A stretch of 64,000 bases of DNA, taken from NCBI RefSeq assembly GCF_003019035.1, contig NZ_CP027447.1. One strand, given 5' to 3'. This document shows, in pieces, positions 50,020-55,154 of the stretch. Origin of the DNA: Escherichia coli (GTDB taxonomy: Bacteria; Pseudomonadota; Gammaproteobacteria; Enterobacterales; Enterobacteriaceae). Each line of letters begins with the position of its first letter. The stretch's first letter is position 1. Under the pieces are notes generated by a model. That model had not been told where the DNA came from. It ran no database searches and saw nothing but the letters and a program-made list of their open reading frames with translations. The position numbers were made by a program, and so were the translations under genes.

Positions 50020-50050
50020 AAAATAAAAACAAAAACCCGCCGAAGCGGGT
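50020..50050 (-). terminator. Rho-independent terminator after the relB-relE-hokD operon
   Basis: Minus strand acccgcttcggcgggt hairpin followed by tttttgtttttatttt. Confidence 0.5.
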
Positions 50051-50119
50051 TAAGTGCGGGTGCGTTGAGGATGCCTGCCACATCAGAGGTGGCGAGGGAT
50101 TTCTCCCCCGCCGGGTCTC

Positions 50120-50275
50120 TTACTCCTCAGGTTCGTAAGCTGTGAAGACAGCGACCTCCGTCTGGCCGGTTCGGATTCGTACCTCGCAGAGGTCTTTCCT
50201 CGTTACCAGTGCCGTCACTATGACGGTTAAACAGATGACGATCAGGGCGATTAACATCGCCTTTTGCTGCTTCAT
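50120..50275 (-). CDS. hokD: Hok-family type I toxin HokD (RelF)
   Basis: Hand-translated 51 aa: MKQQKAMLIALIVICLTVIVTALVTRKDLCEVRIRTGQTEVAVFTAYEPEE; absent from the ORF track because it is shorter than 60 aa. Confidence 0.85.
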   Translation of the reverse strand: MKQQKAMLIALIVICLTVIVTALVTRKDLCEVRIRTGQTEVAVFTAYEPEE

Positions 50276-50346
50276 AGCCTGCTTCTCCTGTCAACGCAAA
50301 GCAGAAGTGTCACCTTCGGTGCGAAACAGAGATGTCATGCTTTGGT

Positions 50347-50634
50347 TCAGAGAATGCGTTTGACCGCCTCGCTATATACTTCCGAGCGTTCTCTTTTCCC
50401 AACAGAAATCACGAAAACGACAACTTTCTCGTCTATAACCTGGTATACAAGGCGATAGCCTGAAGACCGGAGCTTAATCTTGTAACAATCAGGCATACCA
50501 CGGAGCTTGTTTGCTTCAATCCGGGGTGACTCAAGTACTTCAACCAGCTTCTTTTTCAACTGTTCACGTACCGTCGAGCCCAGCTTTCGCCATTCCTTTA
50601 GTGCCCGCTCGTCAAAATCCAGAAAATACGCCAT
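50347..50634 (-). CDS. relE: Type II toxin RelE (mRNA interferase)
   Basis: 95 aa; matches recalled RelE. Confidence 0.9.
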   Translation of the reverse strand: MAYFLDFDERALKEWRKLGSTVREQLKKKLVEVLESPRIEANKLRGMPDCYKIKLRSSGYRLVYQVIDEKVVVFVISVGKRERSEVYSEAVKRIL

Positions 50635-50873
50635 CAGAGTTCATCCAGCGTCACACGTACTGGCTTAGGATTACGAAGCCGTTCTTTCACTATCTCCACA
50701 AGTTCAGCATCTTCATCACTCAGGAGTGTCTGTTTGAACGGCAAGCGTTCATTGTCAGCGATATACTCGAGCATGAGACGAAGCGCTTCAGAAGGAGTTA
50801 CACCCATTTTTTCAAGCGCGGCGTAAGAACGCGCTTTAAGTTCATCGTCAATACGCAGGTTAATGCTACCCAT
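50634..50873 (-). CDS. relB: Type II antitoxin RelB
   Basis: 79 aa; matches recalled RelB; stop overlaps the relE start. Confidence 0.9.
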   Translation of the reverse strand: MGSINLRIDDELKARSYAALEKMGVTPSEALRLMLEYIADNERLPFKQTLLSDEDAELVEIVKERLRNPKPVRVTLDEL

Positions 50874-50879
50874 GTCTTA

Positions 50880-50915
50880 CACCTCTTGTAATTACAAATG
50901 TCATTACAAGTATCG
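50880..50915 (-). promoter_or_regulatory. relBE promoter/operator (relO-like inverted repeats)
   Basis: cttgtaattacaaatgtcattacaag immediately upstream of relB contains the palindromic TTGTAAT/ATTACAA half-sites. Confidence 0.55.
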
Positions 50916-51203
50916 CACTACAACATGCTTAGGGCAAGTCACGAAGGAAGTCAGAAAGTAGTCGTAAGAACGGTGATCACTGTCCGCTTTGTGCCAGGAG
51001 CAGCCATTGCTAAGTCCATCCTGTATTGTGCAGGTCAGCTCGTTTTTAAAGAGTCCGGCCATCATCTTACTGGTACAGACACCATATACTTTGTGACGGT
51101 CAGGCTACATATGCACAACTCAACTTATTCATCTATTTTTTGCTTTAGCATGTCAGTGTTGCTTTCTCGTCGGCGGGTGAGCGGTGACCTGACCTGTCGA
51201 TAA
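50898..51203 (+). CDS. ydfV: Hypothetical protein (ydfV-like position)
   Basis: 101 aa ORF divergent from relB; assignment by position and length only; start overlaps the relO region, so the real start may be internal. Confidence 0.35.
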   Translation: MSLQVSHYNMLRASHEGSQKVVVRTVITVRFVPGAAIAKSILYCAGQLVFKESGHHLTGTDTIYFVTVRLHMHNSTYSSIFCFSMSVLLSRRRVSGDLTCR

Positions 51204-51405
51204 AGGAACGTAACACGTTTTATGCAACACCCGCATGCGGCAGAAAATTATTGCCGAACGTTTACCCCTGTCAACAAGCTTTACTTTCTGAGGCGCGCCA
51301 GCCCGCGAGGAAAACAATCTGAACATCAAACAATTAATGACACAAGAAATACGATTAAAGATTTTTTTGTGCATGCCGATAGTGCTTTTTTAAAAGGAGA
51401 AATCT

Positions 51406-51738
51406 ATGTCTGTCACAATTCAGGGAAATACCTCAACCGTTATTTCAAACAACTCCGCCCCGGAAGGAACATCAGAAATAGCCAAAATCACAAGACAAAT
51501 TCAGGTGCTGACTGAAAAGCTTGGGAAAATCTCATCGGAAGAGGGGATGACGACACAGCAGAAAAAAGAAATGGCTGCATTGGTACAGAAGCAAATTGAA
51601 AGCCTCTGGGCTCAACTGGAGCAGTTGTTAAGGCAGCAGGCAGAGAAAAAGAATGAAGACGCGACAGTTCAGCCTGATAAAAAAGAAGAGAAAAAAGACG
51701 ATACAAATACCGCTGGCACCATTGATATTTACGTCTAA
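51406..51738 (+). CDS. flxA: FlxA (FliA-regulated prophage protein)
   Basis: 110 aa; MSVTIQGNTSTVISNNSAPEGTSEIAKITRQIQVLTEKLGK... matches recalled FlxA. Confidence 0.85.
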   Translation: MSVTIQGNTSTVISNNSAPEGTSEIAKITRQIQVLTEKLGKISSEEGMTTQQKKEMAALVQKQIESLWAQLEQLLRQQAEKKNEDATVQPDKKEEKKDDTNTAGTIDIYV

Positions 51739-51752
51739 GTGACAGCCGTATT

Positions 51753-51776
51753 GTGGCCCTCATCGGGCCACTTTTC
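51753..51776 (+). terminator. Rho-independent terminator after flxA
   Basis: gtggccc tcatc gggccac hairpin followed by ttttcg. Confidence 0.5.
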
Positions 51777-51825
51777 GCCATCAGCCTTTTCTTTAAAGAC
51801 ATATTATCTTTGTATCATTTCTGAT

Positions 51826-53674
51826 AGTTAACATTACAAGATATAAGTAATGGACGCACTCCCAATTAGTCTATTTAAATCGCCACGAGTTTAACTGACA
51901 ACCCATGATCAATTATGAATTGCAACTATTTCTGTAGTCACTTTTGTGGGGACAGTCCACAAAACTGCCAACTTCCGCTTCTTGCTCTTAGCGGACATTA
52001 GCATAGGCTATTTACCATAACGCCTCATTACGCGCACCGCCCAGACTGACTCAGCGCGTTTCTGGCATATCCCCGGTAAAACAAGTAACAAACCACCCGA
52101 AAATGAACACCAGAAACGCGACTTAAGAATCTACCCTATGAATGGATATGCACTCAACCGAATCGATCTTGGTTTCAATCTTTTTTATCGGGATCAGGCT
52201 TCTTTTTAGGTAACTTCGGGGGCTTAACTTGCTGATGACTTTGCGTTCGGCGCGTAAGCCAGGGATGGTCAGCTTTAGGTTTAACATAGTATTTTGAGCG
52301 TAAATCAATACGGGCATTATCCACTCGTTCATGGACACTCTTTTCATCATCCAGTGGTATAGGCTCCGGGCCATCAACATACTTTTCCCAGCCCAGCGCT
52401 TTCCCGTCATACAGAACGTTAATTTCACCGTCAAAGTTCTCGCATACAGTAACAACCGAATGCCTAAGTCGATATCCCCGGCCCTCACTGCGTACCTGAA
52501 ACGCACTGCTTTTGTACTGGAAAGTGAGATTTTTAGACAGAACGCGCTTCGCCTGTAGGCTGAAGATATAACCCAGTTCCTCTTCAGAATGGTGCACATC
52601 AAGATGAGCATTATCAGTAGTACGAGGCGACGTAGCGAACCGGTTGTTATAGGCTTCAATAAAGGTCGGCAACCATGCATTTGCTGTTTCAATATCACTG
52701 ATATTCTGAAGCCGCATTTCTTTGACCAGCCTGTCCTGTAGTGTCTGATTGGCGCGCTCTACCCGCCCTTTTGCCTGCGGGCTGTTGGCATGGATTGGCT
52801 CGATGCCCAGTGTCTTTATCGCACGAGTGAACTGGGTCAGCTCACCTTCCCGCTCTGGGTTATTTACCCTGAATATACTGTGTCTATCAGAGTAGAGAGC
52901 GAGCGGTACGCCATGATCATTAAGGTAACCCCGGAGGGTTTCCATGTAAGCCCGGGTTGTTTCAGCAGGCACAAAACGCAACGCCATCAACGCACTGGTG
53001 GCATCATCAATGAAAACGATCAGTGTACATCTGGGGCCTCGATTTTCAAACCAGTCATGAGGTGAGCCATCAATCTGGATCAGTTCACCGTAAGATGGTC
53101 GTCGCATGCGGCGTTGATATATACGGGCAATTTTACGACGGCGTTCACGCCATAACCCCTCTTCTATCATCCACTTTCTGAGAGTTTCAACGGATAAAGA
53201 TAAACCGTGTATCTCGCGCAATTTTTCGCACGCAAACGTAGGTCCAAAATCAGCGTAACGGCCTTTGAGGAGTGAAATTACTGTTGCTCTGAATTCAGTA
53301 GAAAAGGAATTATTAGGACGCTTTCCACGTCGGTGGGAAACCAGACCAGAAGGCCCTTCATTTCTATACCGTTGCACCAGACGTTTAACCTGCCGAATAG
53401 AAATGCCAATGCGTGCCGCAGCTTGTTCCTGAATAATCTGAAGTCGGTGGAGTTCCTTATGACTCATCGTAACAGTCTCTTTGATCATGAAAAATCCCCC
53501 AGAGAATTGTCTGGGGACATTTTAGAATGGTTCAAAGGGGACATTACAGCTTGGTGTTAACAATAGCCTGCTTCTCCGTGCCTTTCGGCACGTAAGAGGC
53601 TAACCTACATGTGTCTAGCATGAAATTGGCCTCAGATTAATGTTAAGCGTCTTGCAGGACGCGTAATGTTAACT
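51826..53674. mobile_element. Insertion sequence (family uncertain, IS481/ISNCY-like); boundaries tentative
   Basis: Single 437 aa DDE transposase ORF flanked by a 12-bp perfect inverted repeat agttaacattac (51826-51837) / gtaatgttaact (53663-53674); no clear target-site duplication seen. Confidence 0.35.
52175..53488 (-). CDS. DDE transposase with N-terminal HTH and rve-type integrase core
   Basis: 437 aa; HTH near N-terminus (IGISIRQVKRLVQRY); catalytic-triad candidates in IQIDGS, YSDRHSIF and KGRVERANQTL. Confidence 0.8.
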   Translation of the reverse strand: MIKETVTMSHKELHRLQIIQEQAAARIGISIRQVKRLVQRYRNEGPSGLVSHRRGKRPNNSFSTEFRATVISLLKGRYADFGPTFACEKLREIHGLSLSVETLRKWMIEEGLWRERRRKIARIYQRRMRRPSYGELIQIDGSPHDWFENRGPRCTLIVFIDDATSALMALRFVPAETTRAYMETLRGYLNDHGVPLALYSDRHSIFRVNNPEREGELTQFTRAIKTLGIEPIHANSPQAKGRVERANQTLQDRLVKEMRLQNISDIETANAWLPTFIEAYNNRFATSPRTTDNAHLDVHHSEEELGYIFSLQAKRVLSKNLTFQYKSSAFQVRSEGRGYRLRHSVVTVCENFDGEINVLYDGKALGWEKYVDGPEPIPLDDEKSVHERVDNARIDLRSKYYVKPKADHPWLTRRTQSHQQVKPPKLPKKKPDPDKKD

Positions 53675-53822
53675 GGGGCTTTTCTCTATCTGCCGTTGGT
53701 GTCCATGCCCGAGGCAGATAGCCTCAAGCACCCGCAGTCATTCTACTTAACTAAGATTTCCCCGCAAACCGTTTTTGTCCAGCACAGTAAATATCCAACT
53801 AAACCAATGGAGTTCGCTGTAT

Positions 53823-54041
53823 TTACCGCCAGTATTCAATGCACATGACCGCCATGAACACCCCTAAAAAAAGGGCATTTATATATCCAAATATTAATAT
53901 CAAAACATCAACTTTTTCCATATACCTTGCTGTGAAGATGATGGGCATACATGATGCGAACAACCAGAACGCAACAAACAAAAACTGCAATGCGTTTTTC
54001 ATTATTCCTCCTACAATCAATGTGCAATTACATTTAAACAC
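53823..54041 (-). CDS. Hypothetical small membrane protein (two predicted TM helices)
   Basis: 72 aa ORF (likely start MKNALQFLFVAFWLFASCMPIIF...); AT-rich codon usage unlike the flanking phage genes. Confidence 0.4.
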   Translation of the reverse strand: MFKCNCTLIVGGIMKNALQFLFVAFWLFASCMPIIFTARYMEKVDVLILIFGYINALFLGVFMAVMCIEYWR

Positions 54042-54433
54042 ACCTCAATTTGGCCGGACATATAAATATCTAAACCAGAAAAAATCACTTACATAGCGTT
54101 ACAAACTCTTTAGTCTAAAGGTTCATCGTAAAACATTCCCCATACTTATCAGTCCGTTCCGCGCCAGGTAGCTCATTGCCTTATCTGGCAACCTGTAATC
54201 AGGTTTCCGCTTTTTCAGTTGGCTGGTCGTTTAACCGACATAGTTAATCCATTAATCTAGTTGCCGGATGTTGGTGGATTTTCGCGTTTTAGTTGTTCAT
54301 AAAAGTGCACAGCTTTAACCAGTTCTTCTGATGTAACTGGGACTGGTGAGGCAGTGAATAAGGCCTGAATTTGATAGTTCGGCCTGTCGTTACAATCCTC
54401 TTTTTTCGGTACATATTTCCAGTCACCAGACCA

Positions 54434-54892
54434 CTACTTCCCCTGAAAGTCCGTAACGCCTTTTTTCACGTAGCGATATCGCCATGCCACTGGTTTTGCT
54501 TGCCCCGCCGTTTCATGCCCTTCCTGATAATTAATCTCGCTCATTCATCGCCCCACTCATCACAATATGCTTCGACCGGAGTTTTTCCCGCTTCATAGTC
54601 ATCACGCTAGGATTCGACATCAGCAGCACTTCCACCGCGTAACTCACCATAGTCCATTAATAGTTCATCCCGCTCTTCAAAACTGATGTTATATTTAGCT
54701 GAACAAAAATCAGCCACTTTGTTCTTCCTCATCGTCTTTTATTTCGTGGTATGAGTAATTGCAGTAGTTAAAGAAAATTTCTTATGCTCCGTCATGAATT
54801 TCCTCAGGTGTTGCGTCATCGTCCACTTCGAATACATCCTCAAAATCTCCACCAGCTATTCCCGTTTCAATAATAATTTTGAACTTTCGCAT
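54434..54892 (-). other. Cluster of tiny overlapping ORFs (23-41 aa) in shifting frames; probably decayed gene(s)
   Basis: Hand translation gives 36, 41, 23 and 36 aa ORFs at 54782-54892, 54607-54732, 54531-54602 and 54434-54544; an alternative frame across the second gap reads protein-like DDYEAGKTPVEAYCDEWGDE; SD sequences are weak. Confidence 0.3.
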
Positions 54893-55154
54893 TTCACTAC
54901 CGCCCTTTCGGGCGGCCTCCTGATGTTCTGAGGGTGCAGAAATCCATCCGGTTAAGGATTAAATTTTATTTACAGAACTGAATTTAATTATTCAGATATA
55001 CGTATCTGTAGCCTTACGAATCTACTCACTGGATGCCTCTTTCATAAAAATAATCCAGTGGGTTTTATCGTTTTTTCCCTGTTCGTTGACAGATAACAGG
55101 TTTTCTGTCTGTCAGTGCCAGAATCTGGCTTACCGGTATTTGCGTTTCATTCCA

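Follow-up and report, generated by a model that had tools for sequence, protein, structure and literature searches.

The transposase gene and its neighbours

The stretch of Escherichia coli DNA analysed here (64,000 nucleotides of contig NZ_CP027447.1, hereafter the window) contains a gene for a 437-aa transposase, tnp (52175..53488, minus strand). On one side of it lie flxA, ydfV, the toxin-antitoxin pair relBE and the type I toxin gene hokD, and on the other side a hok leader. Many E. coli chromosomes contain this region with 100% identity; their annotation calls the gene a transposase of the ISNCY or of the IS1202-like ISEsa1 family and places it next to flxA, ydfV, relBE and hokD of a Qin-like prophage. 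With a probability of roughly 0.85, we propose that tnp is part of a unit transposon from the ISEsa1 lineage of the IS1202 family, which spans 50289..53562, was inserted at the start of hokD, and is probably immobile now.

A preliminary description of this DNA had reported a transposase with helix-turn-helix (HTH) and rve domains, and both the list of open reading frames (ORFs) and the profile matches agree with it. NCBIfam NF033594 (transpos_ISNCY_2, ISNCY family transposase) matches the 437-aa ORF with 456.4 bits against a cut-off of 250, residues 14-368 of the protein aligning with positions 7-365 of the 368 in the profile. Pfam HTH_32, HTH_29 and HTH_28 are over their cut-offs in the N-terminus, and rve_3 gives a weak match slightly under its own (24.4 bits, cut-off 26.5). 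The catalytic region matched the IS481/IS3 family weakly in a profile search, and a PDB sequence search returned a single marginal integrase match (E=0.0099). The annotation pipeline PGAP labels near-identical copies as IS1202-like ISEsa1 family. Judged by these matches, the protein is a predicted transposase of the HTH plus DDE (rve) type and of the ISNCY/IS1202 family, ISEsa1-like. The 439 aa that ISfinder gives for ISEsa1 would correspond to the 446-aa form of the protein counted from its second methionine, at position 8.

In L001 and L002 PGAP splits the continuous 437- or 446-aa ORF, at window positions 52175-52445, into a 'partial transposase, missing C-terminus' and a 49-aa 'YdfW'. The tnp ORF is unbroken in the window despite this annotation, and we suspect that the ydfW call derives from a remnant of the gene in strain K-12, described below, and forces the split.

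The ends of the element and the target-site duplication

Read on the minus strand, the element consists of a transposase-proximal terminal inverted repeat (IRL), tnp, a first internal site, the flxA/ydfV cargo, a second internal site, relB, relE and a distal terminal inverted repeat (IRR). It measures 3274 bp in the window (50289..53562, minus strand) and 3301-3302 bp in most copies that lack a 27-bp deletion in tnp. IRL (5'-TGTTAACACCAAGCTGTAATGTCCCCTT; 53535..53562, minus strand, outermost base 53562) was placed by aligning independent copies from Enterobacter and Klebsiella plasmids and from the chromosomes of Kluyvera, Citrobacter, Pseudocitrobacter and others, all of which are identical as far as 53562 and divergent past it. 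The minus-strand terminus at this base reads 5'-TGTTAACACCAAGCTGTAATGTCCCC, with the tip TGTTAAC. Ends at ~51933 and 53551, guessed from 'GGGGACA' motifs, were ruled out by the same alignment of independent copies.

IRR (...AAGGTGACACTTCTGCTTTGCGTTGACA-3'; 50289..50316, minus strand, outermost base 50289) lies in the spacer between relE and hokD and was recognised by its similarity to IRL: 21 of 28 positions are identical without a gap (z=7.6, 0/500 shuffles). Its tip reads GTTGACA, and the repeat is conserved in seven other loci (L034, L006, L024, L015, L079, L080 and L082). Both ends of the transposon therefore have TGT/ACA tips, and the two repeats stand at constant spacing in the window and at about 40 other loci.

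Directly outside both repeats stands the 15-mer GGAGAAGCAGGCTAT, read on the minus strand, one copy abutting IRL on the leader side (53563..53577) and the other abutting IRR on the hokD side (50274..50288). The duplication is perfect, and the 15-mer occurs exactly twice in the window, so the earlier statement that no clear target-site duplication is present does not hold for the real ends. The duplicated segment comprises the Shine-Dalgarno sequence of hokD, the spacer that follows and the 'AT' of its start codon, and it is the hokD-side copy that gives hokD its Shine-Dalgarno sequence and the first two bases of its ATG.

Just inside each terminus there is a pair of direct repeats. At the IRL end, a repeat search found two that contain AATGTCCCC, 24 bp apart (53513..53555, minus strand); the matching pair at the IRR end, GGTGACACTTCTGCTTTGC and CATGACATCTCTGTTTCGC, is 25 bp apart (50296..50339, minus strand), and its pairing (13/19 identical) is a hand count from the sequence. 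By analogy with the IS1202 family, whose ends start 5'-TGT and have an extra internal binding site near each end (Harmer & Hall, PMC10132070), these subterminal repeats are likely transposase-binding sites. IRL and IRR have the form usual in that family, imperfect repeats of ~22-29 bp with TGT/ACA tips, and the repeat pair at each end would be the counterpart of its internal binding sites. Its duplication classes (3-5 bp, >15 bp or none) accommodate the 15 bp found here and the 15-16 bp of the relatives, which is close to a subgroup with 16-17-bp duplications (PMC10132070).

The element is thus not a simple insertion sequence (IS) but a transposon, or 'transporter IS': a simple IS of this kind is 1.3-1.75 kb long with tnp as its sole gene, and the 3274-bp unit also holds flxA, ydfV, relB and relE. 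Neither is it a composite transposon, as it has a single tnp gene and its right end is a bare 28-bp repeat after relE. Between IRL and the start of tnp we noted a terminator-like hairpin (TCCCCAGACAATTCTCTGGGGG followed by ATTTTT; 53496-53517, minus strand), which overlaps the inner subterminal repeat and might block read-through from the hok promoter into tnp.

The empty site is an intact hokD locus

The target gene, hokD (51 aa; 50120..50275, minus strand, from the ORF list and annotation), encodes a protein identical to WP_000813254.1. It is cut off from its own leader and lies 71 bp behind relE. The orphaned hok leader and sok region is found on the other side of the transposon (53562..53733, minus strand), where Rfam RF01794 (hok leader/sok) scores 104.1 bits (gathering score 59, E=1.2e-23) over model positions 1-157. 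The RF01794 model stops at the hok AUG, and the window sequence is cut after the 'AU' by the first base of IRL.

The preliminary description had recommended a comparison with insertion-free relatives, and the uninterrupted hokD locus of E. coli O6:H16 2011EL-1370-2 (L033) provided it. This locus holds the 15-mer GGAGAAGCAGGCTAT once, and a sequence composed of the window's leader, one copy of the 15-mer and the hokD ORF aligns with it colinearly over 452 bp, gapless at the junction. The leader/sok region, which in a hok locus stands directly upstream of the Hok ORF, is contiguous with it in L033 and 3274 bp away from it in the window. Since the flanks rejoin colinearly with nothing else missing, the insertion split hokD and removed no phage early gene. 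What had been proposed as a possibly disrupted early-region gene is therefore a type I toxin locus, divided between its leader and its start codon, and no evidence was found for the compromised inducibility that was suggested to follow.

The insertion separates hokD from its promoter and from the leader covered by RF01794, and, from what is known of hok/sok, control of hokD by mok and Sok would be lost with them. Because the duplication regenerates the ribosome-binding site, hokD is left directly behind relBE with a site of its own. The relBEF arrangement is co-transcribed according to Gotfredsen & Gerdes 1998, as cited in PMC5120126.

Two observations concern the DNA next to this locus. In the hairpin-rich region downstream of hokD, Rfam isrK gives a weak match (50030-50111, minus strand; 25 bits against a gathering score of 50, E=0.021), which probably reflects the 3' terminator structure of hokD. 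Beyond the hok leader, the interval that reaches to the methyltransferase, DUF977 and replication genes (53734-55150) has no ORF longer than ~85 aa, and in identical strains PGAP calls a frameshifted hypothetical gene there. The interval has the appearance of decayed prophage DNA and seems to have nothing to do with the transposon.

The 12-bp inverted repeat is not a terminus

The preliminary description had placed the transposase in an IS bracketed by a perfect 12-bp inverted repeat, lying between flxA, taken as a neighbouring moron gene, and the phage early region. This would be a simple IS of 1849 bp (51826..53674) without a duplication. The repeat does exist (AGTTAACATTAC, 51826-51837; GTAATGTTAACT, 53663-53674), each 12-mer is found once in the window, and the two arms bracket the sole transposase ORF. 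Moreover, a 12-bp repeat between the flanks arose in only 0.7% of 3000 shuffles. However, the two arms belong to different kinds of DNA. The left one is cargo downstream of flxA, and it occurs without the right arm in the same cargo of a plasmid (L006) and at a non-hok site (L035). The right one lies inside a conserved stem-loop of the hok leader, within the Rfam sok model, and is for that reason target DNA; it occurs alone in the uninterrupted locus L033. In addition, the sequence common to independent copies ends at 53562, which lies 101 bp inward of the right arm, and no member of the family has ends of this type. We consider the chance that the repeat bounds an IS to be close to nil, and read it, from its sequence context, as a product of juxtaposition despite the low chance probability.

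Only a part of the earlier observation is therefore retained, namely that a transposase-bearing mobile element and a genuine 12-bp repeat are present here. Its real termini are 53562 and 50289, and flxA is not a neighbour of the element but part of its cargo, since a plasmid hok gene and a non-hok site also harbour the 3.3-kb unit with flxA. Two other explanations of the repeat, as the 5'-3' (tac/fbi) pairing of an interrupted hok mRNA and, for its left flank, as a remnant of the hok 3' region, were discarded as well, the left flank being cargo with no homology to hokD.

Independent copies carry the same ends and different cargo

In an Enterobacter IncF plasmid (L034), a 12.8-kb unit is inserted in the plasmid's own hok gene and flanked by GGAGAAGAAGGCCAT, a sequence native to the IncF plasmid hok. 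It reads IRL, tnp, 10.5 kb of nickel/cobalt and chromate resistance genes (ncr/chr), relB, relE and IRR. Plasmid L006 carries the 3.3-kb flxA version at the same hok site, also with the GGAGAAGAAGGCCAT duplication. Three further copies have duplications that match at 16/16 positions: one on a metagenome contig with a different hok leader and a P-loop kinase-like gene as cargo (L080), one on a metagenome contig with a cation diffusion facilitator (CDF) transporter and a membrane protein as cargo (L082), and one in hokD (L079). Away from hok genes, a decayed 2.6-kb copy with a fifth cargo is present downstream of acnA, at a chromosomal site, with a 13/15 duplication (L024), and an IMG/VR contig contains a complete 3301-bp flxA-type unit (L035, 1345-4645). 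The identical 3.3-kb unit is thus found at three or more sites, and relBE with IRR is present in every cargo variant.

These copies bear on the published extent of ISEsa1, which is listed as 1609 bp with 15/22 terminal repeats, no duplication, a 439-aa transposase and no known target, and which was placed together with ISCARN112 in an IS1202-family subgroup without target duplication (Harmer & Hall 2023, PMC10132070). On this basis the window could hold a simple ~1.6-kb ISEsa1 (~51972..53562) beside the hok leader, with relBE and flxA having come separately by horizontal transfer and the IRR-like sequence being a solo end or a coincidence. The conservation of a 1.6-kb module across all cargo variants, which ends in a conserved palindrome, would agree with it, as would the view of earlier authors that relBE integrated into hokD as a separate module (PMC6379469). 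Nevertheless, the ISEsa1-type end near 51972 has no similarity to IRL (z=-0.9), whereas IRR clearly does. No flanking repeat was found around the 1617-bp core, from IRL to the first internal site, in 16/16 distinct flank combinations, just as Harmer & Hall found none, and the perfect 15-16-bp duplications, at several independent sites, surround only the IRL-IRR unit. The identity of the 3.3-kb unit at three different sites and the constant presence of relBE and IRR are equally at odds with a separate arrival of the parts. We therefore judge a simple 1.6-kb IS unlikely. The unit transposon also explains why ISEsa1 was published as lacking a duplication: the 1.6-kb core is never flanked by a duplication, which appears only with the correct distal end.

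Some copies have been rearranged. In K. pneumoniae pINF118_1 (L076/L005) and in L078, L081, L087, L088 and L092, all with the nickel/chromate version, a ~1.07-kb IS (end TGTATGGGTCCACC...) stands in place of the last 10 bp of IRR, and an 11-nt copy of the end of this IS lies between the hok Shine-Dalgarno sequence and IRL. Because this secondary rearrangement removes the tip of IRR, the nickel/chromate transposon of these Klebsiella plasmids is probably immobilised. In Leclercia adecarboxylata NCTC13032 (L015, 2972-3978), relE and IRR are fused to an ISEsa1-like tnp from about codon 103, in the same orientation, as though two copies had been rearranged or placed in tandem.

Insertion at the start codons of hok genes

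To describe the insertion sites, the 90 nt upstream of IRL at 73 junctions were clustered at 90% identity, which gave 20 classes. About ten of them represent distinct hok leaders, and in each of these IRL meets the leader at the start codon (...AT| or ...ATG|), in one and the same orientation; the others comprise two derived forms and seven non-hok sites. Across the hok insertions the junction falls at the same nucleotide, +/-1, and at each hok site the duplicated segment is of the local hok type. The pattern shows a strong preference of the element for the segment from the Shine-Dalgarno sequence to the start codon of hok-family toxin genes, in a fixed orientation.

Could the unit instead have spread among hok loci by homologous recombination, through the homology of hok leaders and ORFs? 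Such exchange would account for chimeric flanks, as in L069, which has one hok leader at IRL and hokD-type sequence at IRR, and for the different cargo of L006 and L034 at a shared plasmid site. But the transposons are 97-100% identical to each other, while the hok leaders that precede them are at most 90% identical. Furthermore, the duplicated 15-16-mers belong to the hok gene of each site (the 15-mer of hokD, for example, is also in the empty site), the position of the junction is constant, and there is a bona fide duplication at the non-hok site L024. Near-identical transposons behind divergent leaders, each with a local duplication, argue for repeated transposition into a preferred site and not for co-inheritance or homologous exchange, and we regard spread by recombination as very unlikely.

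With regard to what is recognised at these sites, a dif-like target defined by TAATGTTAA motifs was rejected: these motifs are a normal part of hok leaders and stand 75-110 bp away from the junction. A hairpin directly upstream of the duplicated segment fits the hok sites, L008 and perhaps L024, though not L035, L089 or L091; as the feature that defines the target it is a weak lead.

Two conserved modules and a variable cargo

Two modules are conserved in all cargo variants, one with the transposase (IRL to 51972) and one with relBE and IRR (50289 to ~50997). The second encodes the antitoxin RelB (50634..50873, minus strand) and the toxin RelE (50347..50634, minus strand), identified from their ORFs and annotation; E. 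coli records with 100% identity to the region name the proteins RelB WP_000534858.1 and RelE WP_000323025.1. The cargo of the window copy includes flxA (51406..51738, plus strand, ORF and annotation), which moves with the unit to plasmid and non-hok sites. The ydfV ORF as annotated (50898..51203, plus strand) straddles the second internal site and is doubtful as a gene, because it is part cargo and part conserved module.

The boundaries between cargo and modules are two related sites. Site 1 (51972..51997), an imperfect palindrome with the consensus AATGTCCGCT-N10-AGCGGACATT, is conserved across copies with different cargo and closes the conserved 1.6-kb transposase module, roughly at the right end of ISfinder's ISEsa1. 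The part of this module between tnp and site 1 is conserved non-coding DNA. Site 2 (50981..51006) is a paralogous palindrome with a different spacer at the start of the relBE-IRR module, and a version of it with perfect arms is present in plasmid L093. The two sites, of ~30 bp, bracket the variable cargo in every transposon variant. The arms of both palindromes resemble the AATGTCCCC repeats beside IRL, and three of the four matches to AATGTCC[CG]C in the window are inside the transposon.

Sites 1 and 2 could be sites of cargo exchange; the unit encodes no recombinase besides the transposase. Using a synthetic site 1-relBE junction as a query for a cargo-less form, we found no plasmid that covered at least 80% of it among 841 matching records. 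One candidate for such a form, of 2261 bp (L058), is really a copy with a 1040-bp deletion inside tnp.

The window copy and its remnant in K-12

Both ends and the duplication are intact in the window copy, and its transposase is identical at 437/437 positions to the 446-aa plasmid transposase WP_004196353.1 apart from a deletion. The deletion, of 27 bp and in frame, was located by alignment with E. coli strain H1 (junction 53426..53427); it lies between direct repeats TCCTGA(G/A)TAAT and leaves the N-terminal HTH region without nine amino acids, SINRHITQE. In E. coli prophage contigs the unit is common both with the deletion (3274 bp) and without it (3301 bp). Among 5426 complete E. coli genomes, 801 contain the tnp sequence, the median being one copy, almost always on the chromosome. 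Given the deletion in the HTH region and the single copy, the element is probably immobile, and most likely a vertically inherited insertion in a Qin-like prophage. It is an old insertion that accounts for no prophage defect.

K-12 MG1655 (L003) retains IRR, the hokD-side copy of the duplication, relBE, ydfV, flxA and window positions 51826..52359, all 100% identical, and after 52359 its sequence jumps to ydfX/dicC. Everything from 52360 rightwards has been lost, that is, three quarters of tnp, IRL, the other copy of the duplication and the hok leader. As K-12 keeps the element only to 52359, its 'ydfW/intK' is the C-terminus of the transposase, and it is the loss of the IRL side that makes the structure of the transposon unrecognisable in that strain. 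In other strains, O26:H11 for example, IRL abuts a DUF977 gene instead, which points to several independent deletions on the IRL side in E. coli.

A proposed modular family of hok-targeting transposons

From what is known of the family, the DDE transposase would bind the TGT...ACA ends and the subterminal repeats and would join the ends to target DNA cut with a 15-16-bp stagger. Such an insertion parts the hok ORF from its promoter and leader, and the duplication regenerates the ribosome-binding site; in hokD this gives rise to the gene order relB-relE-hokD (relBEF) familiar from E. coli K-12.

The comparisons described above establish the boundaries of the transposon, its terminal repeats, the 15-bp duplication, the empty site and the movement of the 3.3-kb unit to other sites. 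A wider proposal, to which we give somewhat better than even odds, is that 'ISEsa1' is the transposase part of modular transposons, a family not described so far, that insert at hok start codons on plasmids and prophages, in one orientation and with 15-16-bp duplications. In these transposons relBE would always occupy the far end, putting a type II module where a type I addiction module had been and leaving the hok ORF captured behind relBE; the cargo (flxA, nickel/cobalt and chromate resistance, a CDF transporter, a kinase) would apparently be exchanged between the two 30-bp palindromes that resemble the transposase-binding motif.

Several points weigh against these readings. All of the support is comparative, with no observed transposition, and the link with ISEsa1 runs via the PGAP label on WP_004196353.1 and the 1617-bp length of the core, not via the ISfinder entry. 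At the non-hok site L035, where 37 bp of downstream flank were at hand, the ends show only a 6-bp direct repeat (CGCCTT). In the diverged relatives L008-L012, L017 and L018 the distal end and the duplication were not found within the available DNA, and for this reason a separately mobile 1.6-kb form may exist. The hok preference could be inflated by retention of insertions that silence a toxin or by hok-hok recombination. Lastly, the presumed effect of the nine-residue deletion on transposase activity is an inference.

The true extent of the element, its duplication, its constant relBE module and its preference for hok starts appear not to have been described previously. In a literature search that did not cover all journals, we found no paper that links IS1202 or ISEsa1 with hok or relBE, and none on the vehicle of relBE, its ends, its duplication or its hok preference. 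The correct distal end resolves the published anomaly of ISEsa1 with respect to duplication. The insertion further explains the origin of the textbook relBE-hokD (relBEF) arrangement, the absence in K-12 of the regulatory elements proper to hokD, and the nature of intK/ydfW; if the modular hok-targeting family is real, the classical relBEF operon of K-12 is a truncated product of it. There is also a practical side, since nickel, cobalt and chromate resistance travel on the same vehicle in 841 plasmid records, mostly of conjugative plasmids, from Klebsiella, Enterobacter, Escherichia, Citrobacter and Salmonella, and the true boundaries of the transposon therefore matter for plasmid annotation.

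Comparison with known systems

The element resembles ISEsa1 in having the same or nearly the same transposase, an IRL that starts 5'-TGT, and a core of 1617-1618 bp close to the published 1609 bp. It differs in that the duplicated unit runs from IRL to IRR with cargo and relBE, from 2.6 kb in the decayed copy L024 through 3.3 to 12.8 kb, and in its 15-16-bp duplications and strong preference for hok starts. A mobile unit as defined for ISEsa1, with the right end at ~51972, has no counterpart in these duplications.

Within the IS1202 family, the ISAjo2/ISAba32 group, which targets pdif/dif sites, has a related transposase, TGT...ACA ends and an additional internal binding repeat close to each of them; its members insert in a set orientation, a fixed distance away from a short conserved target, with no accessory targeting proteins. 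Those elements, however, are 1.5-kb single-gene IS that make 5-bp duplications at XerC/D sites, whereas the element described here has passenger genes, 15-16-bp duplications and the translation starts of hok genes as targets. To a family known for targeting dif/pdif without helper proteins it thus adds a second, quite different specificity, which makes the family useful for studying how a lone DDE transposase selects its sites.

Tn7 and Tn7-like (TnsB) elements share the TGT/ACA termini, the several subterminal binding repeats, the cargo and the site-specific insertion, and a TnsB-like fold has been reported for members of the IS1202 family (Harmer & Hall, PMC10132070). Their duplication is 5 bp, in contrast to the 15-16 bp seen here, and the ORF list has no TnsA, TnsC or TnsD/E within 50289..53562, so that the similarity is confined to the architecture of the ends. 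Tn3-family transposons with type II toxin-antitoxin pairs are alike in keeping that pair constant beside the transposition functions while other cargo varies. Their transposase and ends are unrelated, though, and in the present element the toxin-antitoxin module occupies the end away from the transposase, from where it reads through IRR into the hok gene that has been captured. Finally, the K-12 relBEF operon, together with the Qin pseudogenes intK, ydfW and ydfX, is the same insertion in truncated form, of which the window retains the complete element.

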